Positions 7,990 to 60,123 of a DNA stretch of 64,000 nucleotides are shown in pieces. Source of the DNA: a virus. The notes beneath the pieces were generated by a model that saw only the letters and a list, made by a program, of their open reading frames with translations, was not told where the DNA came from and searched no databases. Numbering within the stretch: position 1 is the first letter of the stretch; each line of letters opens with the position of its first letter. The position numbers and the translations under genes are program-made. The stretch lies in IMG/VR virus record IMGVR_UViG_3300013901_000001; one strand, given 5' to 3'.

Positions 7990-8556
7990 ATGAAAGTAAA
8001 AAGAACAGTAACAATGAAAGTTAGCCATTTTGGGGTTGGAGACCAGATTACCGTAAAACTTCCAGAATACGGAAAGTTTACGGCTATGGCACATGAGATC
8101 ACGGACAAAGGAACATTATTTATCTTCGATGATTGTGTTTGCGAAAGATGGATGAACAAAGAAAATACGAATGAAGGTGGATATTTGGAATCTGACCTTA
8201 GAAAGTTTGTAACACAGGAGTTGCTAAAGGCATTTCCAGATAAACTGCTTGTAAGGATGGTAAAGGACGATAACGGAGATCTACTTTCCATTCCGACTTA
8301 CGGACAGGTTTTGGGTAAAGACTGGGACGATGAGTGGGATGAGAAAAACATTGAGATCGACAAGAGAGAACAATTGCCACTGATGCAGAAAAGAAAGAAC
8401 CGGATTGCAGATTTACAAAACGAATGGACATGGTACTGGTTGCAAAATAAAGTCCGGTCGTCGTCTCACTTCGCTCGCGTCGATGGCGATGGCCGTGCGG
8501 CCAACTACGGCGCGTCTGGCTCCGGCGGGGTTCGTCCGGCTTTCCTAATCAAGTAA
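7990..8556 (+). CDS. DGR target protein 1 (C-type-lectin-like variable C-terminus)
   Basis: GGAGG then ATG 7990; ends ...WYWLQNKVRSSSHFARVDGDGRAANYGASGSGGVRPAFLIK; 3' end matches the TR. Confidence 0.85.
   Translation: MKVKRTVTMKVSHFGVGDQITVKLPEYGKFTAMAHEITDKGTLFIFDDCVCERWMNKENTNEGGYLESDLRKFVTQELLKAFPDKLLVRMVKDDNGDLLSIPTYGQVLGKDWDDEWDEKNIEIDKREQLPLMQKRKNRIADLQNEWTWYWLQNKVRSSSHFARVDGDGRAANYGASGSGGVRPAFLIK
8453..8538 (+). repeat. DGR variable repeat VR1
   Basis: Gap-free match to TR 56391-56476; 17 of 18 differences are at TR adenines. Confidence 0.85.
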
Positions 8557-14705: not shown

Positions 14706-15275
14706 ATGAAAGCATGGAGAAAAGTAAAAATGGAGATCAAAAACTATAAGGTCGGAGATCAGATCGCGGTGAAACTCAAAGGTTTTGGGAAATTTACGGC
14801 TACGGCGCAGAGAGTTTATGACGATGGAAAAACGCTGTTTCTTTTCGATAACTGCGTTGCAGAACGGCATATGAACGAAAACGGTTCAAATTCCGGAGGT
14901 TTTTATGAATCCGACTTATGCAAGTGGATGAATACAAAATTGGTGAAAACTTTTCCTGCTAAACTTCTTGACCGCATGATTTATACGGACGAAGAGCATG
15001 AATGTCTGCTTCGAATTCCGACAAGAAAGGAAATGTTCGGAGAGAATGAATATAGCGAAAATTACGAACCTGATTTAGACAAACAGCTTGAACTTATGAA
15101 AGACAGAAAAAATCGTGTATGCTCACTTCCTGATGATGAATATGCATGGTATTGGTTGATGAACGCGAATATCCGGTCGTCGTCTGGCTTCGCTTGTGTC
15201 CCTAGCCGTGGCACTGCGCTCACCGGCGACGCGTCTGCCTCCCTCGGGGTTCGTCCGGCTTTCCTAATCAAGTAA
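14706..15275 (+). CDS. DGR target protein 2, paralogue of target 1
   Basis: GGAGG then ATG 14706; VGDQIAVKL...GGFYESDL...WYWLMNANIRSSSGFACVPSRGTALTGDASASLGVRPAFLIK. Confidence 0.85.
   Translation: MKAWRKVKMEIKNYKVGDQIAVKLKGFGKFTATAQRVYDDGKTLFLFDNCVAERHMNENGSNSGGFYESDLCKWMNTKLVKTFPAKLLDRMIYTDEEHECLLRIPTRKEMFGENEYSENYEPDLDKQLELMKDRKNRVCSLPDDEYAWYWLMNANIRSSSGFACVPSRGTALTGDASASLGVRPAFLIK
15170..15257 (+). repeat. DGR variable repeat VR2
   Basis: 88-nt gap-free match to the TR; all 19 differences are at TR adenines. Confidence 0.9.
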
Positions 15276-18272: not shown

Positions 18273-18503
18273 ATGAAAGGGAAACGGCTTATGAAGTTTT
18301 CAAGACTTACAAAGCCGGAACTTGAAAAAATACTTCAAAATGCCAATTTTACGAAAGACGAAGAAGAAATATTTAAGGACCTGTCTAGGGGAATTTCTGA
18401 AAAAGAAATATCCCTTAGACATTCTATATCCGTAAGTACGGTTGAAAGAAGAACACGCCGTATCAAGGAAAAAATAAAAAGATTAAACAGGAGTGAGAAA
18501 TGA
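18273..18503 (+). CDS. small sigma-70 region-4-like HTH protein
   Basis: EKEISLRHSISVSTVERRTRRIKEKI; immediately precedes and overlaps the integrase. Confidence 0.5.
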   Translation: MKGKRLMKFSRLTKPELEKILQNANFTKDEEEIFKDLSRGISEKEISLRHSISVSTVERRTRRIKEKIKRLNRSEK

Positions 18504-28373: not shown

Positions 28374-28416
28374 TAACCACAATATATAGCAATCCCGGAT
28401 CGCAAGATATTGTATG
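28374..28416. repeat. 43-bp repeat, copy 2 (better palindrome)
   Basis: TAACCACAATATATAGCAATCCCGGATCGCAAGATATTGTATG; 17-nt arms around the central C match at 14/17. Confidence 0.85.
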
Positions 28417-34747: not shown

Positions 34748-35092
34748 ATGAGAGGGATATTTAGATTAAAAAAGTGCAGAAAATGCCCAATGCACACAAT
34801 TTATAAAAATGTAAAAGGAATACCGGAAGATTATTGCGTTCCAGTTCCATGGTTTTTCTTTAGTATTCCGTGTGTGAAAAGGTCAATAAAGGAATGCGAG
34901 GAAGTTAGAGATGATTATGAGGAGCATAAAAGGGGTATGACGAAATTTACAGAAAGAGAGATGAAATTGAAAATCGAAGAATGCGCCGAACAGATAGCTG
35001 AGTCTTTGTGCAAAGGTAAGGATATTGAGATTCGCAAGTCCACAAATGGAATCAGCGTTGCGGAAATAAGCAAGAAAGTTGTGAGACGATGA
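34748..35092 (+). CDS. hypothetical protein
   Basis: Starts directly after the upstream stop. Confidence 0.45.
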   Translation: MRGIFRLKKCRKCPMHTIYKNVKGIPEDYCVPVPWFFFSIPCVKRSIKECEEVRDDYEEHKRGMTKFTEREMKLKIEECAEQIAESLCKGKDIEIRKSTNGISVAEISKKVVRR

Positions 35093-35265
35093 AAAAGAAA
35101 ATGGAACGGATTATTGACTTTTTGGATTCTTTTTTCTATTATCCAAAGATGAAGAGATATTTTATCAATAAGGGGTTGTTTAGCTACAATCCTTGGCAAG
35201 ATGAAAAATTTGCCAGAATAAAATATGCGTGGTGGCATTGTCATCACGGAAGATTGAGAGATTAA
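35089..35265 (+). CDS. small hypothetical protein (58 aa)
   Basis: ATGA overlap with the upstream gene; below the ORF-track cutoff. Confidence 0.35.
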   Translation: MKKKMERIIDFLDSFFYYPKMKRYFINKGLFSYNPWQDEKFARIKYAWWHCHHGRLRD

Positions 35266-35348
35266 ATCTAACGGCACAACAGATATGGTTGTTGTGCAAC
35301 AAGTCAAAATGGAGACTTCTTTTATTTTGCAAAGGAGGTCTCTTTTTT

Positions 35349-45580: not shown

Positions 45581-45609
45581 CTATGCCGTCTATTTTGCGA
45601 GGTGAGATT

Positions 45610-48600
45610 ATGGCAGAAATTGATGATTTAACCGTGAAAGTCAATGCCGATGCGAAACAAGCGGATAGTGCACTAGAAAAACTGGTATCTCAATTAGAAA
45701 CAGTCAACAGCGCACTTGGCAAGATCATGTCTGGAAATGCTTTTTCAAATATGGAAGAGAGTGCAAAAGCGGCATCTGCATCTATGCAAGGTATATCTAC
45801 CTCTACAAAGCGTGTATCAGACGAAATAGGCTCTCAAATGAAAAAGGCAAGCAATTCTATTAAGGGAGTTGAAACGCCCGTAAAAGAGACGTTTAAGAGC
45901 ATTGAGGACGTTATTGCCAAGCTTGGACAGAAGTCTATTGATATAAAGCCACAAATTGACACTGCCAATCTTGCCGGAGAACAGAAGAAATACACTGAAC
46001 AGTTAAAAAATATGCAGAATGGAATCAACCGTGTTTTAAATTCTGCACATCCGGAAAAGAAAATCGGAACTTTAGATTCTCTTGTTGTGAAGCTAAATGA
46101 AGCAAAGAATGCTTTGAAAGAAATTGAGAGTCTTCAAGGTTCTGTATCGACTTCTACATCGGAAATTCCGGAACCACATTTTTACTGGGAAGATACAAGA
46201 GATCCTAAAGATGTTATAGAGGATTATAAAAACAGCCTTGAAAGTTGGAAAAGCTATCTTGAAAACTTTAATCAAGGAAGCTACAATGCTCCGACAACCG
46301 GATTTGTGGAATCCGTAGAAAGAAGCATAGAAGAATTAAAAGCAAAATTTCCAGATGCAAAATCGCTTATTGCCGAATATGAAAAATTATTCGAGGATCT
46401 TTCTGCCGTTGCAGTTCCTAAAGTAGAAACAAGCAATGTGGAAATTGAAAGTCCGTTAAAGAATATAGAAAATGAAGTTGATAATTTTAAAAAAACCATT
46501 GATTCCATTAAGCCACTTGAATTTACTGGAAACTTCTATGAAATGGAAAAGTGGGTAGACGATCTAAACACCAAACTTATATCTTTACTTGATAAAAGAG
46601 AAAAGTTGACGGATTTAGGTGCAAATATGGACACTCAAAGAATCCAGTCCATGACGTACGACATTGAACAGCTTTCAAAGACCATTGAGAAATACGAAGT
46701 CAAGGTTGAAGAAGCACGGAAAGCCGGACAACTCGACATTAAGATTCCGAGTATTGATGAATCGCTGTCTAAAACTGGACTTTCTGCACAGAAATCTGCA
46801 TCTAAAGTAGCGGAAATCTTTAAAAATAATAAAATCATTGTTCAAACTGACGGATTTAAAAAAGTTCAGAGTGAGATACAGAAAGTAAAGAGGCAGTACG
46901 AAGAACTTGTAAAAACCATTCAGTTAAAGTCTCAAACCATAAGTTTTTATGGTGCAAGTAGTGATTTCAAAAAGAAACAGACAGAGTTGGCCGCTTTGCG
47001 TGAAGATTATCAGAGATTAATCAATAAGCAGAAAGAAATGGCTATTCTGCGATTTGATTCTAAAGGATTTACTGACGGTCTTACAAAACTGCAAGGATTT
47101 GTTTCTAAGACCTCAAACACACTTGGAAGAATTAACAAGAGAATTAATGAGTTTGGAAGAAAGCTATTATCCCTTGTAGCACCAACACAGAAAGCTAGAG
47201 CGGCACTTAAGGGATTAGATGTTACCAATATCGGACTTGCAAACAGTCTACTCCGCACAACCAAAATGTTAAAGCTGATGATTGTAAGAATGGCTTTGCG
47301 TGGTGTGATTGACGGAGTAAAAACCGGAATGCAGAACCTGGCAATGTATTCGGACGAAACGAATGCAAGCCTTTCTCTGCTAATGAACAGCCTTAATCAG
47401 CTTAAAAATTCCTTTGCGGCGGCAGTAGCACCTATTTTGAATGCCTTTGCACCGGCATTAGATAAGATTATTCAGTTATGCATTAAAGCCGTAAATGCCA
47501 TTAATCAAGTGATTTCCGCATTACTTGGAAATGGTACTTTTATTCGTGCTAAAAAACTGACAGACAGTTATAGGGATTCTATCAGTGGCGCATCAAGCGC
47601 GGCAGAAGAACTTAATAAGCAGTTACAGGGATTTGATAAATTAAATAATCTTACCACTTCAAAAAGCGGCGGTGGAGCCGGTTCTACAACAACGAATCCG
47701 GAAGATATGTTTGAAACTGTCAACATTGAAGATAAGTGGAAAGATTTGGCAGATAAAATCAAGAATATCTTAAGCAAAATTTTCGATCCGTTAAAAGAAG
47801 CGTGGAAACGTGCCGGAGATTTTGTAATGAAGTCTTGGAAGTTTGCGCTTCAAGAAGTATGGAAACTGGTTAAAAGCATTGCAAAAGATTTTCTTGAGGT
47901 ATGGAATGAAGAAGAGACCATACAGGTTCTTGAAAATATACTTCTGATTATTGGAGATATTGGTTTAACAATCGGATATCTTGCACAAGGATTTCGTGAA
48001 GCGTGGGAAGAAAACGACACCGGACTTCATATTTTGCAGAATATCCGAGACATTATCGGAGTAATCGTTGAGAACATTCTTCATGCGGCTGACGCAACGG
48101 TTGAATGGGCAAAAAACCTTGATTTTTCACCATTACTTACAAAGATCGAAGAATGGACTGCATCATTAGTTACGGTATTCGATAATTTATCCGGAATTGT
48201 TACTGATTTTTATGAAAAAGTTTTACTTCCACTTGCAAAATGGACGCTAGAAAAAGGTCTTCCTGACTTGCTACAAGTGTTTATTGATTTCAACGAAAAA
48301 GTTGACTGGGAGAAACTTCGTAATAATTTAAAGACTTTGTGGGAACACGTAGAGCCGTTTGCAGAAACAATCGGAGAAGGGTTGATTATTTTTGTAAGGG
48401 ATATATCAGATGCTCTTGCAAATTTTATAAACAGTCAGGAATTTGAGGATTTTCTGACAAAAATTGAAGAGTGGATGGACAACGTTTCTGCAGAGGATGT
48501 AGCAAATACTTTGAAAGATATAGCCGCCGGAATTCTTGTCTTAAAAGTCGCAACAGCAACGTTTAGTACATTATCACCGGCTATTGAAGTTATCAAGTCA

Positions 48601-49914
48601 CTTGTAAACGTTTTAAGTGGAATCAAAATGGCAAAAGCCTTACAGAACCTTGCTAAATTAGGCGGTGGCGGTGCAACTGCATCGGCATCTACCGGAGGCG
48701 TACTTAGCAGTCTTGGTGGGCTTAAAGGATTGCTTTTTGGTGATCTTGGCACTATTTTCGGTGCCGGAACAGCAACAGAAATTGCAGCCACAATAGGAGT
48801 TGGTCTTACTGGTTCATTAGCGGCGTGGTTTGTTGGAAATTGGACAGGAAAGCAGTTAGGCGCACTTCTTTTCCCGGAAATGAAAGAAGAATACCTAAAC
48901 TTCCATTGGCTTGGCGAAGGTGGATTTTTTGATCAGTTATTTGATAAAGAGGATTTTGCATCATTTGATAGCATTAAAGATAAATTCAAAGAGTTATCCG
49001 ATGCTTGGGATATGATGAAATCTGATTTTGCAGACAACCCATTAATTGCTTCGTTTACAACATTTATAGATACTACAGTAAACAGTCAAAATCATTTAGG
49101 AAATTTGATTGAAAAAATAAAAGAAGTTCCGGAAGCGTGGGAAACAGCAAAAACGCAGTTTTTGGAAATTGTAGAATCTGTGAAAGCAAAGTGGGAAGAA
49201 ATCAAGACAGGGTTTACAGACACCGTAGAAGAATGGAAGCAAAAAGCACTTGACCTAAAAGAGAATATCCAACAAAAAATCACAGATTTTGTAGACGGAA
49301 TTAAGGAAAAATGGGAAAACATCAAGGCAGACTTTGATGAACTGAAAGAATCTATCGTACAAAAGTACGAAGATTTCAAAGAAAAAGTCGCAAACAAGTT
49401 AGATGAAATGAAGCAGTCATGGAATGATACGTGGTCTGCAATTGGAGAAGCCGTAGGCGGTACAGTAAAATCTATCATTGATGCAGTTACCAGTGCAATT
49501 TCGTGGATTCAGAGTTTGATTGGAAACATCAACGCAATTCCGCAAACGGTAAACATCGGCGTGAATATGGGTACGGAAATCGGAAAGAACGCCGCAAAAA
49601 AAGTCCGAGGTTATGCTTCCGGTGGATTTATCGAACCGGCAACGTACTTCAAAGCCGGAGAAAACGGTGTACCGGAAATCCTTGGAACAGTCGGTGGTAA
49701 GTCGGCGGTAGCAGGTGGACAGGAAATCACCGGAATTTCCAATGCGATTTACAGTACAGGACAGACCGAAGCACAGCTTTTGTCAGCGGCGGTACAGTTT
49801 TTACAGACTATTGCGCAAAAAGATTTCAGCATCAATTCTTCCGATGCGTTCAACGCAATTCGGGAAGAAGCGCATTCATACGAGAAGCGGACAGGAGATA
49901 AGGCATTCACTTAA
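45610..49914 (+). CDS. tape measure protein
   Basis: More than 1400 aa, coiled-coil and hydrophobic glycine-rich segments; alternative start at 45583. Confidence 0.9.
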   Translation: MAEIDDLTVKVNADAKQADSALEKLVSQLETVNSALGKIMSGNAFSNMEESAKAASASMQGISTSTKRVSDEIGSQMKKASNSIKGVETPVKETFKSIEDVIAKLGQKSIDIKPQIDTANLAGEQKKYTEQLKNMQNGINRVLNSAHPEKKIGTLDSLVVKLNEAKNALKEIESLQGSVSTSTSEIPEPHFYWEDTRDPKDVIEDYKNSLESWKSYLENFNQGSYNAPTTGFVESVERSIEELKAKFPDAKSLIAEYEKLFEDLSAVAVPKVETSNVEIESPLKNIENEVDNFKKTIDSIKPLEFTGNFYEMEKWVDDLNTKLISLLDKREKLTDLGANMDTQRIQSMTYDIEQLSKTIEKYEVKVEEARKAGQLDIKIPSIDESLSKTGLSAQKSASKVAEIFKNNKIIVQTDGFKKVQSEIQKVKRQYEELVKTIQLKSQTISFYGASSDFKKKQTELAALREDYQRLINKQKEMAILRFDSKGFTDGLTKLQGFVSKTSNTLGRINKRINEFGRKLLSLVAPTQKARAALKGLDVTNIGLANSLLRTTKMLKLMIVRMALRGVIDGVKTGMQNLAMYSDETNASLSLLMNSLNQLKNSFAAAVAPILNAFAPALDKIIQLCIKAVNAINQVISALLGNGTFIRAKKLTDSYRDSISGASSAAEELNKQLQGFDKLNNLTTSKSGGGAGSTTTNPEDMFETVNIEDKWKDLADKIKNILSKIFDPLKEAWKRAGDFVMKSWKFALQEVWKLVKSIAKDFLEVWNEEETIQVLENILLIIGDIGLTIGYLAQGFREAWEENDTGLHILQNIRDIIGVIVENILHAADATVEWAKNLDFSPLLTKIEEWTASLVTVFDNLSGIVTDFYEKVLLPLAKWTLEKGLPDLLQVFIDFNEKVDWEKLRNNLKTLWEHVEPFAETIGEGLIIFVRDISDALANFINSQEFEDFLTKIEEWMDNVSAEDVANTLKDIAAGILVLKVATATFSTLSPAIEVIKSLVNVLSGIKMAKALQNLAKLGGGGATASASTGGVLSSLGGLKGLLFGDLGTIFGAGTATEIAATIGVGLTGSLAAWFVGNWTGKQLGALLFPEMKEEYLNFHWLGEGGFFDQLFDKEDFASFDSIKDKFKELSDAWDMMKSDFADNPLIASFTTFIDTTVNSQNHLGNLIEKIKEVPEAWETAKTQFLEIVESVKAKWEEIKTGFTDTVEEWKQKALDLKENIQQKITDFVDGIKEKWENIKADFDELKESIVQKYEDFKEKVANKLDEMKQSWNDTWSAIGEAVGGTVKSIIDAVTSAISWIQSLIGNINAIPQTVNIGVNMGTEIGKNAAKKVRGYASGGFIEPATYFKAGENGVPEILGTVGGKSAVAGGQEITGISNAIYSTGQTEAQLLSAAVQFLQTIAQKDFSINSSDAFNAIREEAHSYEKRTGDKAFT

Positions 49915-49949: not shown

Positions 49950-50354
49950 GTGAGTTATCAAGGATATATGTTTCAATTTGGTTCATACAAGTTTTCCAAA
50001 ATGATTCGGGCAGATACTTACAAGATTACCCCGAATGCAAGACAGGATTTGGATTCATACCGTGACGCAAACGGAGAATTGCACCGGACGGCATTAGACC
50101 ACACGGCAACAAGCGTCACATTTACCATTCCGGCGCATAAAGAAAGAGAGCACGAAGAAATGATGTCTGCTATTCGTAGCAGCTACATTAACGAAAAAGA
50201 GCGTGATGCACAGTGTTCTTATTATGATCCGGAGACTTGCACCTACAAGACCGGACATTTTTACATTGACTCAAACTGGACTTTTCAAGTCTATGGAACA
50301 TATGACGGACAGATTACGTTTCAAGAATACGAGGTTAGTTTTGTTGAGTATTAA
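49950..50354 (+). CDS. distal-tail-position protein
   Basis: First gene after the tape measure gene; GTG start. Confidence 0.4.
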   Translation: MSYQGYMFQFGSYKFSKMIRADTYKITPNARQDLDSYRDANGELHRTALDHTATSVTFTIPAHKEREHEEMMSAIRSSYINEKERDAQCSYYDPETCTYKTGHFYIDSNWTFQVYGTYDGQITFQEYEVSFVEY

Positions 50355-50369
50355 TCAGAGGGAAAAGGC

Positions 50370-51713
50370 ATGAACGTATCAGATGCAACCAAAACAGAAT
50401 ACAGAAATTCCAGTGTTCATAAGAACCTGACTATTAAATTTCCGGAACTTGGACTCACGATTGATAACACAAAAATTTATCAAGAAAGCATGAAATTGAA
50501 AGAGTCCATTCTGGAAAAGAATAACATTGAGTTTGTCGGTTGCATCGCCAGTTCCTTTTCCGTCCAGATTCAAGGACTTAAGGAAGATGTTAAGGGAAAG
50601 AAAATTGAAGCATCTATTACCACGGACGGAAGCACCGATGAGCCGATACCGTTGTTTCATGGCATCGTAGACAGTGCCGTATTGCAAGACAACCGGTTGA
50701 GCAAGACCATAACGGCATATGACATTCTTTATACCAAAGGAAATACAGAGGTTTCCGGTTGGTACAATTCTCTGACATTTCCTATCACTATAAAGCAGTT
50801 TCGGGATTCCCTGTTTTCTTACCTTGGGATTACACAGGACGAAACATCACTTGTCAACGATGATATTTCCATAAGCAAGCAGTACGATCCAAAGACGCTT
50901 AAGGCTTTGAACGTGATTAAGGCTATCTGCCAGATAAACGGAGTTTTTGGGATCATTAACCGTGACGGTATCTTTGAATACCGGACAACGCAAAGCGGTC
51001 TTTATCCGTCTGGAAACCTTTATCCGTCCGATGATTTGTACCCTTTTTCCGGTGAAGAAACGGAACTTACCGAAGAAGAAGTTGCGGAAGCAATGCAGTA
51101 TTACAAGAAAATCCGGTATGAGGAATTTAAGGTAAAGCCGGTTGACAAAATCACTATTCGGCAGAACGAAAACGATGACGGAGTGACTTATGGAAGCGGA
51201 ACAAACAACTACATCATTCAAGGAAATATGTTCACCTACGGACTTTCCAATGAAACGCTTTTGCAAATGGCACAGAACATTTATCCGTATGTCGAAGGCT
51301 ATTCCTACTATCCGTTTCAGGCATCAAACATGGGATTGCCGTTTGTGGAGTGCGGTGTTGATATTTTGTCCTACAAGGTGCGAAACCTTGACACCGGAGA
51401 AACGGAAAAGAAGTATTACAACGTGTTTAGCCGTGAGTTGACCGGAATACAGGCGTTGAGTGACAGTTACACGGCAAAGGGTGAAGAGTACCAAAGTGAG
51501 TTTATTACAGACTTGCAGACTTCGATTGATGTTATCAAGCAACAAGACCAACAGTATCAGCAGACTTTTAATGACTTTGATTCAAGGATTTCTGCATTGG
51601 AAAAAGGCGGCGGTGGTGGCGGTGGAATCAATATAGTTTCCGTTGATGTATTACCGGCTATCACAGCTGCAAATACAGTTTATCTGATTCAAGGAATTGT
51701 GGTGGTGGAATAG
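50370..51713 (+). CDS. tail-tip / baseplate protein (Tal position)
   Basis: 447 aa, second gene after the tape measure gene; C-terminal GGGGGGG run. Confidence 0.45.
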   Translation: MNVSDATKTEYRNSSVHKNLTIKFPELGLTIDNTKIYQESMKLKESILEKNNIEFVGCIASSFSVQIQGLKEDVKGKKIEASITTDGSTDEPIPLFHGIVDSAVLQDNRLSKTITAYDILYTKGNTEVSGWYNSLTFPITIKQFRDSLFSYLGITQDETSLVNDDISISKQYDPKTLKALNVIKAICQINGVFGIINRDGIFEYRTTQSGLYPSGNLYPSDDLYPFSGEETELTEEEVAEAMQYYKKIRYEEFKVKPVDKITIRQNENDDGVTYGSGTNNYIIQGNMFTYGLSNETLLQMAQNIYPYVEGYSYYPFQASNMGLPFVECGVDILSYKVRNLDTGETEKKYYNVFSRELTGIQALSDSYTAKGEEYQSEFITDLQTSIDVIKQQDQQYQQTFNDFDSRISALEKGGGGGGGINIVSVDVLPAITAANTVYLIQGIVVVE

Positions 51714-51718
51714 AAATA

Positions 51719-52936
51719 ATGGGAAAACAAAGTTCGAGAATTTATTTTCAAGGAAAAGACCATAAGGATATTTATTTTAATACATATTACAGTTCGTCAA
51801 TGGTGGTTAATAATGAAGTTTTTTGGAAAAAAATTTACGAATTAAATGGAATATATCAGAACGATGTTCCGGCTTCACGTAGGTGGTTTTGCAATTATAT
51901 TGACAAAAAACAATATAAAATATACGGAACAGGAAAAACAAGTTCCTTGATATATTACTATCCTATATCAAATGGATTTGCATTTTGTTATAAGTCGGAA
52001 TCAAGAAATTACAAAAATGTAATAGCAACCACCGGTGATCTTGCTGTTTTTAAAGAGGCTTGTGTGCTCGAGGAAGACTTCGATTATGATGAGACTGTAA
52101 TAATTGATGATGATGTTTTGTGTATGTGCAATGTGTCTCGTTATAGTAGTATAAAAAAAGATATTACATTTTTGTTGTATTCATTTTCTCAAAAAAAATT
52201 AAAAAAGTATGTAATACAAAACGCAAGATTAGTAGAAAACGTAAACGAAGAAATTAGCAATCGTTATGGAAAGGCTGTTTATTTAATTGAAATTGGAAAT
52301 GATGATTATGAGTATTTGTCAATTGACATGGAAGGCTACACACTTACAAAATGTTATATGTTAGATGAATATAATGATAAGAGAGCTCCATTTTTATATT
52401 ATAATGATAATTTCTACTATATAAAACAGACAATAGAAAAGGTAGGGACTGGTTCAAAAGCGTATAAAACGACGTATAAAGTATGTTGTTTTGATACAAA
52501 CAATGAAGAGCGTACCTTGTGTAGCATAAAAGAACTATTTAGTTCGAGCCAATATACGTATTATGAAACCAGTGAAATGTTAAGAAGATATACAACAAGA
52601 GTAAACAACAATACCTACATTTTATTTGACAGAGTAATAAGGTTTAATGATGAAAAAACTTCTGCTACAACAGAGGAATTTACGGGCGTAAACTTTGAAA
52701 TAGATAAATATAAAGAACAAAAAAAGGTAGGAACTATCAATTATTCGTTTGAAGAAAGCACGGCTGGAAATCTTTATAGCGGCCCTTATGTAATAGAAAA
52801 CGGGCAAGTCAATAGGAATTGTATGGTCGATTATATGACTAAAAATGAAAACGGAGAAAGGACAAGTTATATTGTTTTAGTTAAGGACTTATTTGAGAGT
52901 GATAACAATATAGCCATTTGCATTGATGAATTATAG
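51719..52936 (+). CDS. hypothetical tail-module protein, AT-rich
   Basis: 405 aa, N/K/Y/I-rich. Confidence 0.45.
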   Translation: MGKQSSRIYFQGKDHKDIYFNTYYSSSMVVNNEVFWKKIYELNGIYQNDVPASRRWFCNYIDKKQYKIYGTGKTSSLIYYYPISNGFAFCYKSESRNYKNVIATTGDLAVFKEACVLEEDFDYDETVIIDDDVLCMCNVSRYSSIKKDITFLLYSFSQKKLKKYVIQNARLVENVNEEISNRYGKAVYLIEIGNDDYEYLSIDMEGYTLTKCYMLDEYNDKRAPFLYYNDNFYYIKQTIEKVGTGSKAYKTTYKVCCFDTNNEERTLCSIKELFSSSQYTYYETSEMLRRYTTRVNNNTYILFDRVIRFNDEKTSATTEEFTGVNFEIDKYKEQKKVGTINYSFEESTAGNLYSGPYVIENGQVNRNCMVDYMTKNENGERTSYIVLVKDLFESDNNIAICIDEL

Positions 52937-52950
52937 AAAGGTGGTAGAAC

Positions 52951-53814
52951 ATGGCATATGTAAAGCAAACGTGGACTGACAGACCGTCAAAGACAACGCC
53001 GATTAATGCGGCACGGCTTAACTACATGGAACAGGGGATTTATGATGCAAGTCAAGGAAGTGACTTGTTTAATTCAAACGGCATTAGTTTTGGTAGAAAA
53101 GACGGAACAACAGCCGGATATAGAAGCACGGCAGAAGGTTTTAACACGACAGCTTCTGATACATATACACATGCCGAGGGTTTTCAATCTGTGGCAAGTA
53201 GCATTTCAAGTCATGCCGAAGGTCAAAACTCCGAAGCCAGCGGATATTATTCACACGCGGAAGGGTACGGAACAAAAGCCACAGAAGAAGCTACTCATGC
53301 GGAAGGATATTACACAGAAGCATCCGGTTCGGACGGTGCACATGCCGAAGGTTATTATACAAAAGCAACCGGTTCAAACTCTCATGCCGAAGGACGTGAA
53401 TCGGTGTCTTCCGGATATTATTCCCATGCCGAAGGTTATAAGTCTAAAGCGCAAGGTGACGGTTCGCACGCGGAAGGTCAGAAAACAACGGCTTCTGCTT
53501 ACGGATCCCATGCAGAGGGAGAAGAAACCACAGCTTCTGGAAGCGATTCACATGCGGAAGGCAGAGGAACTATTGCCAAAGGAATGTATCAGCACGCGGA
53601 AGGAAAATACAACATTGAAGATACACAAAATCAATATGCGCATATTGTAGGCGGAGGTTCAGAGTCGGAAAAAAAGAATATTCATACTCTTGATTGGGAC
53701 GGAAATGCGGTGTTTGCCGGAGATGTGACAAATGGTGAAGGAATTACCATGAACGGATTAAAGTCACTAATTGATGCTTTGCAAGTAGAAGTAGATGCGT
53801 TAAAAACAACATAA
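52951..53814 (+). CDS. tail fibre with eleven 14-residue HAEG repeats (YadA-head-like beta-roll)
   Basis: 11 HAEG motifs with spacing of 14 aa (one of 15). Confidence 0.7.
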   Translation: MAYVKQTWTDRPSKTTPINAARLNYMEQGIYDASQGSDLFNSNGISFGRKDGTTAGYRSTAEGFNTTASDTYTHAEGFQSVASSISSHAEGQNSEASGYYSHAEGYGTKATEEATHAEGYYTEASGSDGAHAEGYYTKATGSNSHAEGRESVSSGYYSHAEGYKSKAQGDGSHAEGQKTTASAYGSHAEGEETTASGSDSHAEGRGTIAKGMYQHAEGKYNIEDTQNQYAHIVGGGSESEKKNIHTLDWDGNAVFAGDVTNGEGITMNGLKSLIDALQVEVDALKTT

Positions 53815-53830
53815 AGCGAGGTGATGTTTT

Positions 53831-54139
53831 ATGAAACGAGGTACAACGCCAACTCTTGAAATAGCGGTAGACGGCGTAAAGGTCACGGATTTGTCAAATA
53901 TCTATGTCACGTTCAAACAAGATGATTTGATAATCACAAAGTCCGGAGAGGACATACAAGTAAATGAAGAGGATAATTTGTTAGGAGTTTCTTTAAGTCA
54001 AAAGGAAACTCTTTTTTTTCGCCCCGGATTCGTTTACTTGCAGATGCGAGCGGTTACAAGCGGTGGAAATGCCATTGCAACAGATGTTCAGAAAATGGAT
54101 GCATTGGAAATCTTGCAAGAGGGGGTAATTGACCTATGA
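53831..54139 (+). CDS. hypothetical tail-fibre-associated protein
   Basis: 102-aa ORF in the fibre cluster. Confidence 0.45.
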   Translation: MKRGTTPTLEIAVDGVKVTDLSNIYVTFKQDDLIITKSGEDIQVNEEDNLLGVSLSQKETLFFRPGFVYLQMRAVTSGGNAIATDVQKMDALEILQEGVIDL

Positions 54140-54357
54140 GTTGCGGATGTGGAATCAAGTTAACGGTTTCTGAAAAATTTCAAGAAGTAATTGGAACTGA
54201 TACCTACAAAGGGGATTACACTGTTATTCCCAAAGTGGAAGAACAAGTAATGGAAACAAAAAATAAAACAATGACCGACAACGTGAAAGTTTTAAAAATA
54301 CCTTACAGCGAGGTTGATAACTTGTCTGGCGGTCAAACAATTACCATAGGAGGTTAA
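54136..54357 (+). CDS. small fibre-cluster protein
   Basis: C-terminus IPYSEVDNLSGGQTITIGG resembles the C-terminus of the next protein. Confidence 0.4.
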   Translation: MSCGCGIKLTVSEKFQEVIGTDTYKGDYTVIPKVEEQVMETKNKTMTDNVKVLKIPYSEVDNLSGGQTITIGG

Positions 54358-54361
54358 AAAC

Positions 54362-54934
54362 ATGGCAGTTAACAAAGTAGTTTACGGAGAAGAGGTACTT
54401 ATTGATTTAACAGGAGATTCCGTTACGGAAGATACTCTTGCAAAAGGAATCACTGCACATGATAAGTCCGGCGCAGTTATTACCGGTACAAGCACAAAAG
54501 ATGTGGATTCCGCAGATGCAACAGCGGCAGTGGCTGAAATTCTTCTCGGAAAAACCGCATACGCAAGAGGTCAGAAGCTGACAGGTACAATGCCGAATAA
54601 CGGAGCGGTTACAGGAGAAATCACTGATAAAAATACGGATTACACGGTTCCTCTTGGTTTCCATGACGGATCCGGAAAAGTCGGAATCGCAACGGCAGAA
54701 AAGGCAAAGATTATTGCCGGAAATATTAAGCAAGGCGTAACCCTTCTTGGAGTTGAAGGGACATATTCTGGTGAGGGGGTAAATTTACAGGCTAAAACGG
54801 TTACTCCGTCAAAAACCGCACAGACGGTACAGGCAGATGCCGGATACGATGCCTTATCATCTGTTACTGTAAATGCGATTCCTTACACGGAAACAGATAA
54901 TGCCGCCGGAGGAAAGACGGCAACAATCGGTTAA
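54362..54934 (+). CDS. receptor-binding-type protein (invariant paralogue)
   Basis: N-terminal ~45 aa similar to the DGR target at 54949. Confidence 0.5.
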   Translation: MAVNKVVYGEEVLIDLTGDSVTEDTLAKGITAHDKSGAVITGTSTKDVDSADATAAVAEILLGKTAYARGQKLTGTMPNNGAVTGEITDKNTDYTVPLGFHDGSGKVGIATAEKAKIIAGNIKQGVTLLGVEGTYSGEGVNLQAKTVTPSKTAQTVQADAGYDALSSVTVNAIPYTETDNAAGGKTATIG

Positions 54935-54948
54935 AGGAGCAACGGATT

Positions 54949-55788
54949 ATGGCAATTAATAAAGTGGAATATAGCGGAAATACATTAATTGACTTGACTT
55001 CTGACAGCGTAACACCGGAATCTTTACTTTCCGGCGTTACCGCACATGATGCGTCTGGAAATTTGATTATAGGAGAACTTAATCCGCAAAGAATATTTGA
55101 TAATGCCGGATATCACAACAGTATTTTTCGTGGAAAGAACTTGGGAACGGCTGTTCCGGAAGAACAATACGAAGCTATTTCTTCCGGAGAGTTCACGGAT
55201 TTGTATGTAGGTGATTACTGGACTTTAAACAACGTTGTTTACCGTATTGCCGGATTTGATCTGTTTTTACATACGGGGGATACAGAGTTAACAACGCATC
55301 ATGTTGTTATTGTGCCGGATAAAAATATGTACAGTCACGTGATGAATGATACAAATGTGACCACCGGCGGTTACTACAATAGCAAAATGAAACAAAGTGG
55401 TCTGACACAGGCTCTGACTACGGTAAAGGCGGCATTCGGTGAAAGCCACATAGTAAAAAGAAGAGTAATTTTAACAAATGCCACAAATGGAGATAATCCA
55501 TCCGGATGGGCGTGGTACGATACCTACATTGACCTTATGACAGAACGGCAGGTATATGGATCTCCTGCATGGGGACAGGCGGCACATAATGGATATGATG
55601 CCGGATGTGAGTATTCAAGACTTCCGTTGTTTGCACTTGCACCGGAATTTATCACAAATAGAGAATGGTATTGGCTACGAGATATCCGGTCGTCGTCTGG
55701 CTTCGCTGGTGTCTCTGGCCAGGGCCGTGCGACCGACGCCGACGCGTCTCGCTTCGGCGGGGTTCGTCCGCTTTTTTTAATCTCTTAA
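54949..55788 (+). CDS. DGR target protein 3 (fibre-attachment N-terminus plus variable lectin-like C-terminus)
   Basis: Ends ...EWYWLRDIRSSSGFAGVSGQGRATDADASRFGGVRPLFLIS. Confidence 0.9.
   Translation: MAINKVEYSGNTLIDLTSDSVTPESLLSGVTAHDASGNLIIGELNPQRIFDNAGYHNSIFRGKNLGTAVPEEQYEAISSGEFTDLYVGDYWTLNNVVYRIAGFDLFLHTGDTELTTHHVVIVPDKNMYSHVMNDTNVTTGGYYNSKMKQSGLTQALTTVKAAFGESHIVKRRVILTNATNGDNPSGWAWYDTYIDLMTERQVYGSPAWGQAAHNGYDAGCEYSRLPLFALAPEFITNREWYWLRDIRSSSGFAGVSGQGRATDADASRFGGVRPLFLIS
55683..55770 (+). repeat. DGR variable repeat VR3
   Basis: 88-nt gap-free match to the TR; 19 of 21 differences are at TR adenines. Confidence 0.9.
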
Positions 55789-55798
55789 TCGTCAATCA

Positions 55799-55815
55799 CC
55801 GCCCCATGTGGGCGG
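55799..55815 (+). promoter_or_regulatory. GC-rich hairpin downstream of VR3
   Basis: CCGCCC-CATGT-GGGCGG. Confidence 0.7.
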
Positions 55816-55838
55816 AGTTGACGAAGAAAGGAGCATAT

Positions 55839-56366
55839 ATGTCAGAAATACCAAAGTCAAGAAGAAAAGAATCAAAATTAGAAGTAATTCACAAAGCGTA
55901 TAAATTACGAGCTAGAATAACAAATGAACTAATATGCAGCTTCGGATATTCTCAAAAGAAATATGAAGCACATTTAAACAAAGCGGTAAGACATATTCGG
56001 GACGAAACAGAACGCGAGGAAAAGAAAGAAGTTCTGCGCAAAATGGAAGGAAATTTTGATTTCTGGATTATTGAAAAAGAAAGAGACGATATTCTACATT
56101 ACACAAAAGGAATCGTAAATCATCTTATATCTGCAAACACAATATATCCGGTTAATGTATCGGAATATGAAGAACGCAGATTGGAAATGGATAGAGCGTT
56201 GGTGTGTTGCACGTGTCTTCAACAGGAATTGCAGTACATCGCAGAAGTTCTTCCGTCTGACAAGAATAAGTACATGAACATAGTGCTTGAAATTCAAACG
56301 ATCCGAGAAATGATAAAAGGGCTTCGCCAATCCGACAACAGATTTTTAAGAGATATCAATAAATAA
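55839..56366 (+). CDS. avd: DGR accessory variability determinant (Avd-like)
   Basis: GAAAGGAG then ATG 55839; basic helical 175-aa protein between the target and the TR. Confidence 0.7.
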   Translation: MSEIPKSRRKESKLEVIHKAYKLRARITNELICSFGYSQKKYEAHLNKAVRHIRDETEREEKKEVLRKMEGNFDFWIIEKERDDILHYTKGIVNHLISANTIYPVNVSEYEERRLEMDRALVCCTCLQQELQYIAEVLPSDKNKYMNIVLEIQTIREMIKGLRQSDNRFLRDINK

Positions 56367-56388
56367 ATAGCACATTGGGTAACCTTTG

Positions 56389-56476
56389 TATCCAGTCGTC
56401 GTCTAACTTCGCTAATGTCAATAGCAATGGCAATGCGAACAACAACGACGCGTCTAACTCCAACGGGGTTCGTCCG
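56389..56476 (+). repeat. DGR template repeat (TR)
   Basis: Non-coding; 23 adenines, variable codons AAC/AAT; matches VR1-3; ends in GGGGTTCGTCCG. Confidence 0.9.
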
Positions 56477-56611
56477 ATTTCACAACTACCTACTTGACAT
56501 AGATTCTACTGGTAGCAATGGGAAAGGAAAGGTTATCCGTTCAGCGGAAGCTGATAAAAGAAAATTCCGATATGCCGAGTTACGACAAGGTATTAGAAAC
56601 GGGGTTAAAAT

Positions 56612-57835
56612 ATGAATCCATTAATAGATGCAAATAGTTTATATGACGCCGGAACATTGGCGATAAAAAGTAGCAGCTTCAAGTACAAAACGCAATTATT
56701 TGAAATGAACCATCTTTTGGAAACTGCATTATTACAGAAAGAATTGCAAGAAGGAACGTACAGACCGGAAAAAGGAACAAAATTTCTGATCCATGAAAGA
56801 GGAAAAATCAGATACATCACAAGCAATACCATGAGAGATAAAACAGTCAATCATGTGTTGTGTGATGAAATCGTCACACCATCCATAGAAAAATATTTGA
56901 TCTATGATAATAGTGCTTCACAGAAAGGCAAGGGGATTTCTTTTGCCAGAAAGAGACTGGAAGAACATTTGCATAGTTATTATAGGAAATACGGGACAAA
57001 TGACGGCTACATCTTGTTGATGGATTTTTCAGGTTATTATGCGAATATTCCACACGATAAATGCAAGGACATTCTGTATAGAATGGTTTTCCGAGACGGA
57101 CTTGAAGAAGAACCGACCAAAGCAGTGATTGAAAATATTTTTAAATCCTACGAAATGGATGTTTCATATATGTCTGATAAAGAAATAAAAGTCTTGTATA
57201 GCACAAAGGTAGATCCTGTAATGAACCAAAACGTTCCGAAAGAATTGCTTACAGAACAAAAGATGCTAAAGAAAGGAGCGGACATAGGAAATCAGCTTGC
57301 TCAAGCAATAGGAATTACTTTTCCTTATAAGATTGATAATTATGTGAAAATCGTAAGAGGATGCAAATTTTACGCCAGATATACGGATGACAGCTATATT
57401 ATTTCGAGCGATAGGGAATTTTTGTTTGATGTTTTGGACGGTATTAAAGAAATTGCGGATGAACATGGAATCATATTGAACAAAAAGAAAACGAGGATAG
57501 TAAAGATTTCCTCGTTTTTCAGATTTATGCAGATAGGATATTCCCTAACTGCCACAGGAAAAGTGATAAAGAAAATAAATCCTAAAAATGTGAGAAGGGA
57601 AAGGGTGAAGCTGAAAAAATATAAAAATTTGTTAGATAATGGAAAAATGACATATGCAGACATAGAAAATTGCTTTAAGTCTTGGATATGTACATACTGG
57701 AAAATTATGTCGCACCAACAATTATACAATATGAACGCCCTGTATAAGGAGCTGTTTGGAAAGGGAATAAAATGGAAAACGAAAAATTCACGATTACATT
57801 GGCTGATGGAACACAAATCACCGGACTTTCGATGA
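56612..57835 (+). CDS. DGR reverse transcriptase
   Basis: RYTDDSYII (YxDD box), IGNQLAQ, finger/palm spacing; directly downstream of the TR. Confidence 0.9.
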   Translation: MNPLIDANSLYDAGTLAIKSSSFKYKTQLFEMNHLLETALLQKELQEGTYRPEKGTKFLIHERGKIRYITSNTMRDKTVNHVLCDEIVTPSIEKYLIYDNSASQKGKGISFARKRLEEHLHSYYRKYGTNDGYILLMDFSGYYANIPHDKCKDILYRMVFRDGLEEEPTKAVIENIFKSYEMDVSYMSDKEIKVLYSTKVDPVMNQNVPKELLTEQKMLKKGADIGNQLAQAIGITFPYKIDNYVKIVRGCKFYARYTDDSYIISSDREFLFDVLDGIKEIADEHGIILNKKKTRIVKISSFFRFMQIGYSLTATGKVIKKINPKNVRRERVKLKKYKNLLDNGKMTYADIENCFKSWICTYWKIMSHQQLYNMNALYKELFGKGIKWKTKNSRLHWLMEHKSPDFR

Positions 57836-58071
57836 ATGGAAATTGTTTTATCAGCAACACGGAGATTGAGGAATACAAACTTACTGACGACAACCTTTTG
57901 ACTGTCACAATTAATGAAGAAACATATGAGAATATGACTTGCGACAACCTTTGGGAGGACAACGGCGAGTGGTGGTTTATTCTCCGTGAAAAGACAAAAG
58001 AAGAATTAAAAGAATTGGAATTGAATGCAAAGATTGAGTTTTTGATGGCTATGCAAGGGGTGATCGAATGA
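57772..58071 (+). CDS. hypothetical protein (XkdW position)
   Basis: Overlaps the RT 3' end; precedes the XkdX-like gene. Confidence 0.4.
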   Translation: MENEKFTITLADGTQITGLSMNGNCFISNTEIEEYKLTDDNLLTVTINEETYENMTCDNLWEDNGEWWFILREKTKEELKELELNAKIEFLMAMQGVIE

Positions 58072-58202
58072 GTAAGAATTTTAAAAAAGTACAGATGTAC
58101 TACAAGATGGGTATTTACAATAAGCAGATGGTTAAAATGCTCGTTTGGAAACTTATTACTTCTGATGAATACGAACTAATTACCGGAGAAAAGTATGAAT
58201 AG
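58068..58202 (+). CDS. XkdX-like small protein (44 aa)
   Basis: MYYKMGIYNKQMVKMLVWKLITSDEYELITG pattern; ATGA overlap. Confidence 0.5.
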   Translation: MSKNFKKVQMYYKMGIYNKQMVKMLVWKLITSDEYELITGEKYE

Positions 58203-58802: not shown

Positions 58803-58812
58803 GGTGGTAGAT

Positions 58813-60123
58813 ATGGAAGTAAAAGAGTTTATTGAACTTATAGCACCAATTGCGGTTAAAGATTGGAAAGAAAGAAAAAATGTTCTTCCGTCACTTACCA
58901 TTGCACAATGTATTAAAGAATCCGGGCACGGAACATCTGAACTGGCAACAAAAGCCAATGCATTGTGTGGAATTAAAGCCGGAAATAACTGGACAGGTGC
59001 TACATATACTAAGGTTTCCAAAGAATGGGAAAATGGCAAGTATGTGGATAAAAAGAGTACATTCAGGGCGTATACAAGTTGGGGAGAGTCTGTTGTAGAT
59101 CACAATTCTTACATTGCGGAGCAAAAGATCGGAAAACAGAAAGAGCCAAACTTTAAAGAGGTTGTTGGGGAAACCAATGTAAAAAAGGCAATAGCCGGAT
59201 TGGTTGGAAATGGCTGTCGAGAAGATAATATTGCAAGTTGTACGGATTCCGAACTGGCTGAATTTGTAAAGAACGGAAAAACAGAATACACATATGCAAC
59301 AGCACCAAACTATGCTCAATCCTTACTTACAGATTACATTGAAAAATACAACCTCACGCAGTATGATTCCGATGCGGACCAGTCCGCAGAGCCGGAACAA
59401 CAGAAAAAGATTCGGTCATTCAATGTTCATGCTGGGCATAACCCTAGCGGTAAAGTCGCTTGCGGTTCGGTTGGTTATCTGAACGAGTCCGATGAAAACC
59501 GGAATGTCTGCAATGGATTGATTGAGAAGATCAAAAATGCCGGGCACGTAGCTTATAACTGCACCTGTGATGACGGTATAAGCCAAAAAGATGTATTGCA
59601 AAAGATTGTAGCAAAGTGCAATCAACATACGGTTGATCTTGATATTTCCGTTCACTTCAATGCCTTGTCAAAGGAATACATTTCAGACGGTAAGACAAAG
59701 GGCGTTGAGGTGTGGATTCATCCGAATAACAGAGGAAAAGAAGTCGAAAAAACCGCACAGGCAATTTGTAACAGTGTTGCTAAATTGGGATTTACAAACC
59801 GTGGCGTCAAGTATTCCGACGGCCTTTACGTGATTAAAAACACAAAATCTCCGGCGATGCTGATTGAATGTTGCTTTGTAGACGATGTAGACGATTTCCA
59901 ACTTTATGAATGTTCAAAAATGGTACAGGCTATTTATGACGGTCTTTCCATTGAAACAGTGGAAGATAAGGAAGAAAAGAAGTTGTACTATGTCATTGCC
60001 GGGGTATATTCTTCGGAAGAAAACGCAAAGGCATTTGCAGAATCGCTTGCAAGCAAGGGATACCTGATGAACGCAGACGGAAATCTTATCCGTGGAATTA
60101 CAACGCAGATTAAAGAAATGTAA
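58813..60123 (+). CDS. endolysin: glucosaminidase plus MurNAc-L-Ala amidase plus SPOR-like domain
   Basis: LTIAQCIKESGHGTSELA; HAGHNPSG...DISVHFNA; C-terminal KLYYVIAGVYSSEENAKAFAESLASKGY. Confidence 0.8.
   Translation: MEVKEFIELIAPIAVKDWKERKNVLPSLTIAQCIKESGHGTSELATKANALCGIKAGNNWTGATYTKVSKEWENGKYVDKKSTFRAYTSWGESVVDHNSYIAEQKIGKQKEPNFKEVVGETNVKKAIAGLVGNGCREDNIASCTDSELAEFVKNGKTEYTYATAPNYAQSLLTDYIEKYNLTQYDSDADQSAEPEQQKKIRSFNVHAGHNPSGKVACGSVGYLNESDENRNVCNGLIEKIKNAGHVAYNCTCDDGISQKDVLQKIVAKCNQHTVDLDISVHFNALSKEYISDGKTKGVEVWIHPNNRGKEVEKTAQAICNSVAKLGFTNRGVKYSDGLYVIKNTKSPAMLIECCFVDDVDDFQLYECSKMVQAIYDGLSIETVEDKEEKKLYYVIAGVYSSEENAKAFAESLASKGYLMNADGNLIRGITTQIKEM

Follow-up and report, generated by a model that had tools for sequence, protein, structure and literature searches.

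The question raised by the locus at positions 54949-57835 of IMG/VR virus record IMGVR_UViG_3300013901_000001 is whether it represents a complete diversity-generating retroelement (DGR) and, if so, whether this element is still at work. The whole stretch of DNA that was analysed, 64,000 nucleotides (nt) in length, is referred to below as the window. The original prediction had described the locus as a target gene, an avd gene, a template repeat (TR) along with a gene for a reverse transcriptase (RT), in the layout of Bordetella phage BPP-1. All four components are indeed found in the canonical order target-accessory-TR-RT, and we hold with high confidence that 54949-57835 is a complete DGR of the BPP-1 type, which appears to be currently active. 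Taken alone, the cassette is ordinary and belongs to a known kind of system; the interest of the locus, which we would call moderate, comes from the evidence of activity across samples at three sites, from the covariation of the RNA and from an unannotated accessory protein family. The components of the cassette, including the variable repeat (VR) of the target, are the following:

54949..55788, plus strand: T3, the adjacent target, 279 amino acids (aa), with a 42-aa N-terminal module and a DUF6273-like C-terminal domain that contains VR3
55683-55770, plus strand: VR3, the variable repeat that ends target T3, in gapless alignment to the TR
55790..55823, plus strand: GC-rich inverted repeat 3' of VR3, with core CCGCCC-CATGT-GGGCGG at 55799-55815
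55839..56366, plus strand: gene at the Avd position for a 175-aa accessory protein, predicted to form an elongated four-helix bundle
56389-56476, plus strand: TR, 88 nt, non-coding, with 24 adenines and 10 AAY codons in the target's frame
56612..57835, plus strand: DGR reverse transcriptase, 407 aa, with YTDD catalytic motif and motif 4 IGNQLAQ

The anatomy of the repeats and the adenine specificity of their differences can be read directly from these letters. The TR is located in the 245-nt gap separating the accessory gene from the RT gene, and VR3 aligns to it without gaps, as had been predicted; VR3 is not the last 88 nt of the coding sequence, as had also been claimed, but ends 18 nt before the stop codon, which itself ends at 55788. 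The number of mismatches originally counted is likewise correct, namely 21, with 19 falling on TR adenines, one on a T and one on a C, but the adenines of the TR amount to 24 instead of 23, five of them being unchanged in VR3. The excess at A over non-A sites is highly significant (Fisher exact p = 8.7e-13), and upon realignment the mismatches remain strongly A-specific. In the target's reading frame, the diversified TR codons are AAC or AAT as expected, ten in all, besides the single-A codons ATC, CAG, AGC and GAC; the number of protein variants open to ten AAY codons and four single-A codons is about 1e14. When the whole window is searched with the TR and its A positions are disregarded, exactly three VRs and the TR itself come up, all on the plus strand. 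The two additional VRs correspond to the extra targets that had been announced:

8451-8538, plus strand: VR1, which ends target T1, with 20 mismatches to the TR, 18 of them at A
15170-15257, plus strand: VR2, which ends target T2, with 19 mismatches to the TR, all 19 at TR adenines

Across the three VRs the A-bias yields Fisher p values of 9e-12, 5e-15 and 9e-13, and each VR ends 18 nt before the stop codon of its gene. The 3' block GGGGTTCGTCCG, described as invariant, is common to the TR and to all three window VRs. In addition, the roughly 65 nt 3' of each VR are also alike among the three copies, GC hairpin included, and the boundary of TR and VR is marked by a fixed difference, an A in the TR (G-A-TTTC) and a C in every VR (G-C-TTT(C/T)).

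The affiliation of the RT is also directly observed at the level of protein families. The RT matches RVT_1 of Pfam (E 7e-13) and phrog_1423, a phage RT family (E 1e-50). Its best relative in the PDB is 8ub7 (E 2e-8), a 328-aa reverse transcriptase with the motif IGSLTSQ that we take to be the BPP-1 bRT, and the next is a group II maturase RT (E 6e-4). The motifs RYTDDSYII and IGNQLAQ are present as claimed. Among the 120 closest homologues, IGxxxSQ is found in about 115 and YTDD in 113; in IGNQLAQ the Q is kept and the S is replaced by A, a variant of the small clade to which the window belongs together with the related locus L001, and L001 still has TR-matched, A-mutated VRs. Moreover, related IMG/VR loci carry an A-biased TR/VR pair in the same VR-accessory-TR-RT layout in 14 of 15 cases at first and in 68 of 78 cases in a larger set, with the VR about 700-770 nt upstream of the TR and the end of the TR about 140 nt before the RT. 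Homologues, motifs and layout, rather than a formal phylogeny, thus make it probable that the RT belongs to the DGR clade. A megablast search of 54000-58200 against INPHARED phages gave no match, and a scan of GTDB genomes with the RT gave only two short contigs from metagenome-assembled genomes (Saccharibacteria and Malacoplasma bins), probably mis-binned phage fragments.

A sceptic might propose that the repeats are ordinary duplicated coding sequence and that the RT belongs to an unrelated retroelement such as a group II intron, a retron or a defence RT. Models of these other classes do respond to the protein, namely TIGR04416 (48.7 bits), Drt3a (29 bits) and retron St85 (25.5 bits), but their scores are far below the cut-offs of 200-300 bits, and PADLOC likewise returned only generic RT similarity. 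The mismatches, on the other hand, are A-specific with p<1e-11 at three loci, the non-coding TR directly precedes the RT, 8ub7 ranks first among relatives of known structure and the layout is kept in the 68 of 78 loci mentioned above. An Rfam search of 55600-56800 found neither intron RNA nor retron non-coding RNA, the only hit being a chance ALIL match (E = 1). No grouping of the RT with group II intron, retron or defence RTs is therefore seen, and this explanation is effectively refuted, with practically no chance of being right.

The activity of the DGR becomes apparent when assemblies from different samples are compared. The exact RT protein occurs on at least 23 contigs from different samples, and in seven of ten further assemblies with the same RT protein the TR is identical as well. 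Nine type-1 assemblies share one RT protein and, in all but one (L020), the same TR, and among them eight distinct VR3 sequences are found; these eight consist of the window (to which L021 is identical) and seven further assemblies. Over 3.5 kb, the compared sequences have an identity of about 99.1-99.7% to the window, and seven of them have exactly its TR. Within the 88 nt of VR3 there are 28 variable columns, mostly at TR-A sites, while the other 3.45 kb contain 26, and the DNA flanking VR3 is nearly invariant up to the VR boundaries. Each VR3 agrees with the TR at 60-62 of 62 non-A sites, with the exception of L023 (54 of 62). In addition, when the TR itself changes, VR3 changes with it. 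Specifically, in L001 (92-94% DNA identity) the TR changes GGGG to GGAG, GTCC to GCCC, GCT to GCC, TCT to TCC and GCG to GCC are all mirrored in its VR3, and the non-A TR substitutions of L001 and L027 (for example GGGGTTCGTCCG replaced by GGAGTTCGCCCG or GGCGTTCGCCCG) are mirrored in the cognate VR3. Hypervariation of the VR beside an invariant TR, and co-variation of TR and VR at non-A positions, are thus observed facts of the comparison, and bear what looks like the signature of a one-way transfer from TR to VR since these genomes diverged.

The two remote repeats behave in a similar manner. VR1 exists in five alleles in seven related loci, or six with that of the window, each in agreement with the TR at 60-62 of the 62 non-A sites, and VR2 in four to five alleles in ten loci, again following the TR at non-A sites; because they follow the TR at these positions, VR1 and VR2 were written by this TR as well. 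On these small numbers, both look to be rewritten less often than VR3. In other words, near-identical assemblies of about 67 kb that have one RT and TR and differing VRs represent a natural time series, in which one DGR would be seen to act on its neighbouring target and on two remote ones, the rates apparently being unequal.

Three assemblies deserve a separate description. In L027 and L029, around 9090-9870, a divergent VR3-accessory-TR module is present (accessory protein about 64% identical, TR ending in GGCGTTCGCCCG), with the RT protein unchanged; VR3 of these loci follows the new TR (a further entry, L032, is the same contig as L029, ERZ27300204 k119_156536). The third assembly, L020 (ERZ26859195 NODE_285, 9781-9865, covered 1541x), is peculiar in its TR. 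At four positions, in the part that corresponds to 56456-56463 of the window, a G takes the place of the A that all other TRs have (TCTGGCTCCGGC), and the resulting sequence is that of VR1 there. Either the repeats were joined into a chimera during assembly, or a conversion from VR to TR took place, with loss of template adenines.

A number of observations weigh against the reading of the locus as a complete and currently active BPP-1-type DGR, and are considered together here. Activity appears from differences between assemblies, that is, on a comparative basis. VR2 is identical in five or six of the ten loci, and in the genome with the swapped module VR1 and VR2 keep to the old TR, apart from a single base at VR1's 3' end. 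Rewriting of the remote targets may accordingly be infrequent, or may have ceased in some lineages. VR3 of the window has its two non-A mismatches, and VR3 of one assembly has a 3-nt insertion. This insertion, in L023 (9069-9160 of ERZ808299 NODE_360), is in frame with respect to the TR and gives a 280-aa target, which points to occasional indels that arise in the course of homing or are tolerated afterwards. The motif 4 of the RT, IGNQLAQ, is not the canonical SQ form and is shared by four of the 120 relatives. The accessory protein has no match to Avd in Pfam or NCBIfam, and is 175 aa long against about 128 aa for Avd, with a mean isoelectric point (pI) of only 7.9 in its family. Finally, the AlphaFold2 (AF2) model of T3 (predicted local distance difference test score, pLDDT, of 76, and below 50 in the VR region) has no meaningful Foldseek match in the PDB, so that a C-type lectin fold was not recovered for the target by this search.

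Some of these points could be accommodated by a fossil DGR, which once diversified its targets and is now inactive, the VR differences being old alleles shuffled by recombination between phage strains. The uniformity of VR2 and the adherence of VR1 and VR2 to the old TR beside a swapped module are in line with such a history, as is the A in place of S in motif 4, and modular recombination is real in this group, as L027 and L029 demonstrate. Against this stand eight distinct VR3 sequences among nine assemblies otherwise nearly identical, with flanks almost invariant up to the VR itself. Moreover, all open reading frames (ORFs) are intact, the RT retains its catalytic YTDD, both the RNA structure and the accessory gene are maintained under compensatory change, and the very clade with IGNQLAQ (the window and L001) has fresh TR-matched VRs. 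We consider a fossil element to be very improbable, and a DGR that is apparently still diversifying its targets remains by far the preferred reading.

The accessory protein is the component whose assignment needs the most care. Its gene has a ribosome-binding site and is recovered by gene calling in every related contig, and its family holds the same position in related loci and in Acutalibacter phage Fontainebleau. The AF2 model consists of four long helices (pLDDT 85). In Foldseek searches of the PDB the top matches are chains of 2rld ('S23 ribosomal protein family'; probability 1.0, TM-score about 0.8 when target-normalised, E 0.16), an entry that we take to be assigned to PF05635, the family of Avd. 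The BPP-1 Avd (4dwl) appears lower in the PDB list, and the top match in BFVD is annotated 'Avd-like protein'; the E-values of the top matches are only 0.05-0.16. At the sequence level, PHROG 3206, 'Avd protein of DGR', gives a weak full-length match (E 1e-4). The phmmer and profile searches of the accessory family against PDB sequences miss both 4dwl and 2rld, hhalign against BPP-1 Avd in two alignments gives a probability below 1% (0.2% in one), and in a per-member Pfam scan none of 40 members reaches the PF05635 threshold, one of them having an E of 0.015. The protein had been described as a helical basic protein in the Avd position; position and helical fold are borne out, while the basicity is only mild (pI 8.8, net charge +4), and homology to Avd is not found by Pfam or hhalign, the weak PHROG 3206 match being the only such signal. 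For comparison, a pI of 9.5 is reported for Avd (PMC5758913).

These data leave room for a working DGR in which the 175-aa protein is of a non-Avd accessory class that converged on a helical bundle and took the Avd position. The PF05635, hhalign and PDB-sequence results agree with such an origin, as do the size of the protein, about 45 aa longer than Avd, its lower basicity and the existence of a large and unannotated family. The Foldseek results point in the opposite direction, with 2rld and the 'Avd-like protein' on top and 4dwl also recovered, as does the whole-length match to PHROG 3206, and very low conservation is a known trait of Avd genes (PMC5758913). We regard convergence as unlikely, though of all the alternatives it is the one to which we give the most weight. 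On the preferred reading the protein is probably Avd-like by position, predicted fold and weak PHROG match, within a separate sequence family, and would take part in the DGR by analogy with BPP-1. At 90% identity the family falls into 247 clusters, and at 50% identity it has 775 representatives (E<=0.001); all are 'hypothetical' among the matches listed, which for the exhaustive profile search are the best 150; it (about 775 clusters) could be annotated as DGR-associated.

The RNA that contains the TR gives a further line of evidence. A complementarity search of the sequence upstream of the TR against the spacer found a duplex of 11-12 base pairs (56376/7-56387 with 56528-56539) that would bracket the TR, and the spacer itself appears to be highly structured. 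The elements are listed below by position:

56376..56387, plus strand: 5' arm of the predicted TR-bracketing RNA duplex (U-GGGUAACCUUU), pairing with 56528-56539
56477..56611, plus strand: structured spacer RNA between TR and RT, from covariation and minimum free energy (MFE) fold
56478-56481: invariant spacer UUUC, pairing with GAAA at 56522-56525
56486-56515: hairpin P1
56528-56539: 3' arm of the duplex, preceded by a 2-nt GG linker
56541-56554: hairpin P3 with GGAA loop, followed by UAAAA
56565-56604: long hairpin P4 with UUACGA loop

The order of these elements, G-A-UUUC, P1, (A/U)UGGGAAAGG, GG, duplex 3' arm, P3, UAAA(U/A), P4 and the RT start codon, is consistent across the family, and it is the GAAA within the conserved (A/U)UGGGAAAGG that is able to pair with UUUC. 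When 20 diverse family members are aligned, 93.8% of the cells of the four spacer helices are paired, a share that drops to 30-52% in slid controls, and compensatory changes occur at 23 of the 27 pairs. Most of the related loci that were examined have the bracketing duplex, whose sequence occurs in ten or more different compensated forms; an alignment of 18 sequences has 99.5% of cells paired and compensatory changes in seven of 11 pairs. The MFE fold of the window sequence alone reproduces the bracketing duplex, P1, P3 and P4. Covariation of the RNA structure is thus observed across related loci. Two other structures were considered and not retained. A mini-hairpin P2 (GGA/UCC) proposed by alifold was set aside, being invariant and made of the same UAUCC that the long-range duplex uses. 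An extension of the UUUC:GAAA pairing to 7 base pairs is compensated in L077, L014 and L075 and loses a pair in L073 and L081, and only the 4-base-pair core, which is invariant, is claimed.

In the structure of the BPP-1 ribonucleoprotein obtained by cryo-electron microscopy, a TR:Sp template:primer duplex of four essential base pairs lies beside the priming A56, and is followed, after two nucleotides, by an 11-base-pair avd:Sp duplex that stops cDNA synthesis, by a short stem-loop and by adenosines engaged in A-minor contacts (bioRxiv 10.1101/2023.10.23.563531). Similar RNA elements are predicted in 207 of 278 Avd-containing DGRs (bioRxiv 10.1101/2023.10.23.563531). The RNA around the TR of the window appears to parallel this "cPRT Stop" architecture, and by analogy A56525 would be the priming nucleotide and A56477/G56476 the first template positions. 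The covariation would support the architecture that cryo-electron microscopy revealed for BPP-1, here in a distant lineage of Firmicutes phages whose accessory protein is not recognised as Avd by sequence.

On the DNA side, each VR of the window is followed by a GC hairpin with a 5-nt loop, 26-28 nt 3' of the repeat. For VR3, arms 55799-55804 and 55810-55815 enclose the loop CATGT and the structure begins 28 nt after VR3. The 6-base-pair GC hairpin with 5-nt loop of the original prediction is thereby found, but at 28 nt and not 29, and it is extendable to 55790-55823. Comparable GC hairpins lie 3' of the VRs in ten related loci, at a similar distance and with different stem sequences, one of them with a 7-nt loop. 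By analogy, they may represent the counterpart of the BPP-1 target-recognition hairpin/cruciform, with a corresponding role in homing. A terminator-like hairpin with T-run at the 3' end of VR3 (55756-55772, GGCGGGGTTCGTCCGC-TTTTTTT) rests partly on diversified bases, is absent at VR1 and VR2, and was not counted.

These elements can be arranged in a working model. An RNA spanning about 56376-56605 and holding the 88-nt TR would be made, and the TR would be clamped by the 11-12-base-pair duplex, formed by its immediate upstream flank and a part of the spacer about 50 nt 3' of it. The spacer would fold into three further hairpins, and its conserved GAAA would pair with the UUUC directly 3' of the TR. 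If the analogy with BPP-1 holds, the RT and the helical accessory protein would bind this RNA and cDNA synthesis would be primed in cis near A56525. The TR would then be copied from its 3' end, with misincorporation opposite adenines and a stop at the clamp, and the mutagenised cDNA would replace the VR of those targets that have a matching GGGGTTCGTCCG, the G-C-TTT(C/T) flank and the downstream GC hairpin.

What, then, is being diversified? Besides T3, two non-adjacent targets are found in the window:

7990..8556, plus strand: T1, 188 aa, DUF6273 only, with VR1 at 8451-8538 and GC hairpin at 8565-8585 (start codon placed as the gene is called in related contigs)
14706..15275, plus strand: T2, 189 aa, DUF6273 only, with VR2 at 15170-15257 and GC hairpin at 15284-15304

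The C-terminal domain of T3 aligns with T1 and T2, and PF19789/DUF6273 occurs in many of 6,988 T3 homologues; T1 and T2 match Pfam DUF6273 above threshold, and also phrog_21980. DUF6273 models are reported to resemble C-type lectin domains (PMC10743442), and DUF6273 has already been described as a DGR target domain in gut phages (PMC11792537, PMC10743442). The first 42 aa of T3 are 60% identical to the product of its upstream neighbour, 54362-54934, and this shared module suggests a common attachment module within the tail cluster. The most likely role of T3 is that of a virion receptor- or ligand-binding protein. T1 and T2 do not have the N-terminal module of T3, no signal peptide is obvious in their N-termini by eye (no prediction was run), and their neighbourhood is one of early genes, with methylases, a helicase and Tad4/Apyc1-like candidate anti-defence genes. 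It could be envisaged that T1 and T2 act as decoys or inhibitors against changing host defence or competitor proteins. The roles of all three targets are deduced in this manner, from domains and gene context. We attach one and the same low grade to two stronger readings, which we consider rather improbable: that T1 and T2 are intracellular hypervariable binders and not virion receptor-binding proteins, and that the 175-aa protein represents a distinct non-Avd class of DGR cofactor. If true, intracellular T1 and T2 binders would represent a new use of phage DGRs.

The remainder of the window provides the setting. It is the genome of a tailed phage, with the large terminase at 35229-37124, the portal at 37926-39461, the major head protein at 40814-41959, a 1443-aa ORF in the tape-measure position at 45583-49914 and tail genes at 49950-54934. 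T3, the DGR, XkdX-like small genes and an amidase/glucosaminidase endolysin (58804-60123) follow, landmarks that place the cassette between the tail and lysis genes, as originally stated. The early genes of 1-16000 include RecT-like and single-strand DNA-binding (SSB) proteins, cytosine and N6/N4 methylases, a helicase, a Phg_2220_C replication protein, a G39P-like loader and a helix-turn-helix protein. ERZ808271 NODE_27 (67,359 bp) is 100% identical to the window where compared and joins window position 64000 to position 1 through a further 3,304 nt; several contigs of about 67 kb from other samples begin at different points. This junction and these differing starts indicate a genome of about 67.3 kb that is either circular or circularly permuted, on which VR1 lies about 19.4 kb and VR2 about 26.1 kb forward of the TR. 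The host probably belongs to gut Clostridia-like bacteria. In the 3.3 kb absent from the window (L021, 18124-18492) a Spo0A_C-domain protein and an SSB-like protein are encoded, which hints at a spore-forming Firmicutes host.

Other features of the window are recorded here as separate observations. An (AGAGC)x11 repeat at 6950-7004 lies inside a C-5 cytosine DNA methylase gene that is fragmented in the window (ORFs 6189-6527, 6436-7017 and 7427-7948). In near-identical contigs the copy number is 11, 9 or 10, and one contig without the tract has an intact 535-aa ORF; the methylase looks like a phase-variable gene. A 43-nt direct repeat, 93% identical between its copies at 15914-15956 and 28374-28416, flanks about 12.4 kb in which a serine recombinase (16540-17190) and a tyrosine integrase (18500-19747) are found. 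The region just after VR2 differs between related contigs, and what the repeats bracket may have been integrated as an element, or may represent a variable cargo island. Near the remote targets, window positions of about 4100-5200 (L030, 865-1918) encode a Tad4-family protein (PF25186) and a metallo-beta-lactamase-fold protein with a faint match to Anti-Pycsar Apyc1, both candidate anti-defence genes.

Compared with known systems, the element resembles that of BPP-1 (mtd-avd-TR-brt), with which it shares the order of target, accessory gene, TR and RT, the adenine-specific mismatches based on AAY codons and an RT that aligns end to end (23% identity). The RNA is alike in the 11-base-pair duplex of upstream and spacer sequence that brackets the TR, followed by a stem-loop and adenosines, and in the 4-base-pair core duplex beside the presumed priming nucleotide, 2 nt from the clamp arm. 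The fixed A/C difference at the boundary resembles the IMH*/IMH distinction, but here the similarity of TR and VR breaks off directly behind the GC block that they share, at the point marked by this difference. The TR is also shorter (88 nt versus 134 nt), the 407-aa RT reads IGNQLAQ and contains about 60 additional aa inserted in its fingers region, and the 175-aa accessory protein is without detectable sequence similarity to Avd in a direct comparison. The target carries a DUF6273-type domain in the place of Mtd, and there are three targets, two of them 19-26 kb away.

With regard to the targets, the closest parallels are the Faecalibacterium prophages Lelie, CP11, Roos and Pioen and the gut phages nd4/nd12 ('tentaclins'), which are likewise gut Clostridia phages having DUF6273 targets with the VR at the C-terminus of the domain (PMC11792537, PMC10743442). 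Large and small targets occur together in one phage there too, and the RTs are 26-29% identical to that of the window; they differ in belonging to another RT and accessory sub-family, and the two small targets of the window are in the early region and not inside the cassette. Non-adjacent targets within a prophage are documented (PMC5758913), and metagenome surveys miss them on account of short contigs (PMC8144416). The arrangement in the window, one target beside the cassette and others elsewhere, is that described within 50 kb of prophage in the phage DGR survey of Wu et al. 2018 (PMC5758913). Here, unlike in that survey, the activity at non-adjacent targets is supported by VR allele differences between samples, and the remote targets sit among early genes near methylase, helicase and anti-defence-like genes.

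The closest cultured relative is Acutalibacter phage Fontainebleau (ON453893), a prophage of A. muris KB18, whose RT is 56% identical. It has the same accessory family (184 aa), TR/VR layout, clamp duplex and spacer motifs, with the cassette between tail and lysis genes, and its TR/VR pair of 94 nt has 16 of 19 mismatches at A. It differs in its 39-kb genome and in the single VR found in the 7.4 kb examined. In its record (34541-35339; L118, 2703-3501) the accessory and target genes are annotated as hypothetical and an 84-aa 'hypothetical protein' coding sequence is laid over the TR and the spacer RNA; the paper on Fontainebleau makes no mention of a DGR. As this cultured phage resides in A. 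muris, an OMM12 strain, it offers an experimental handle for the predictions made here.

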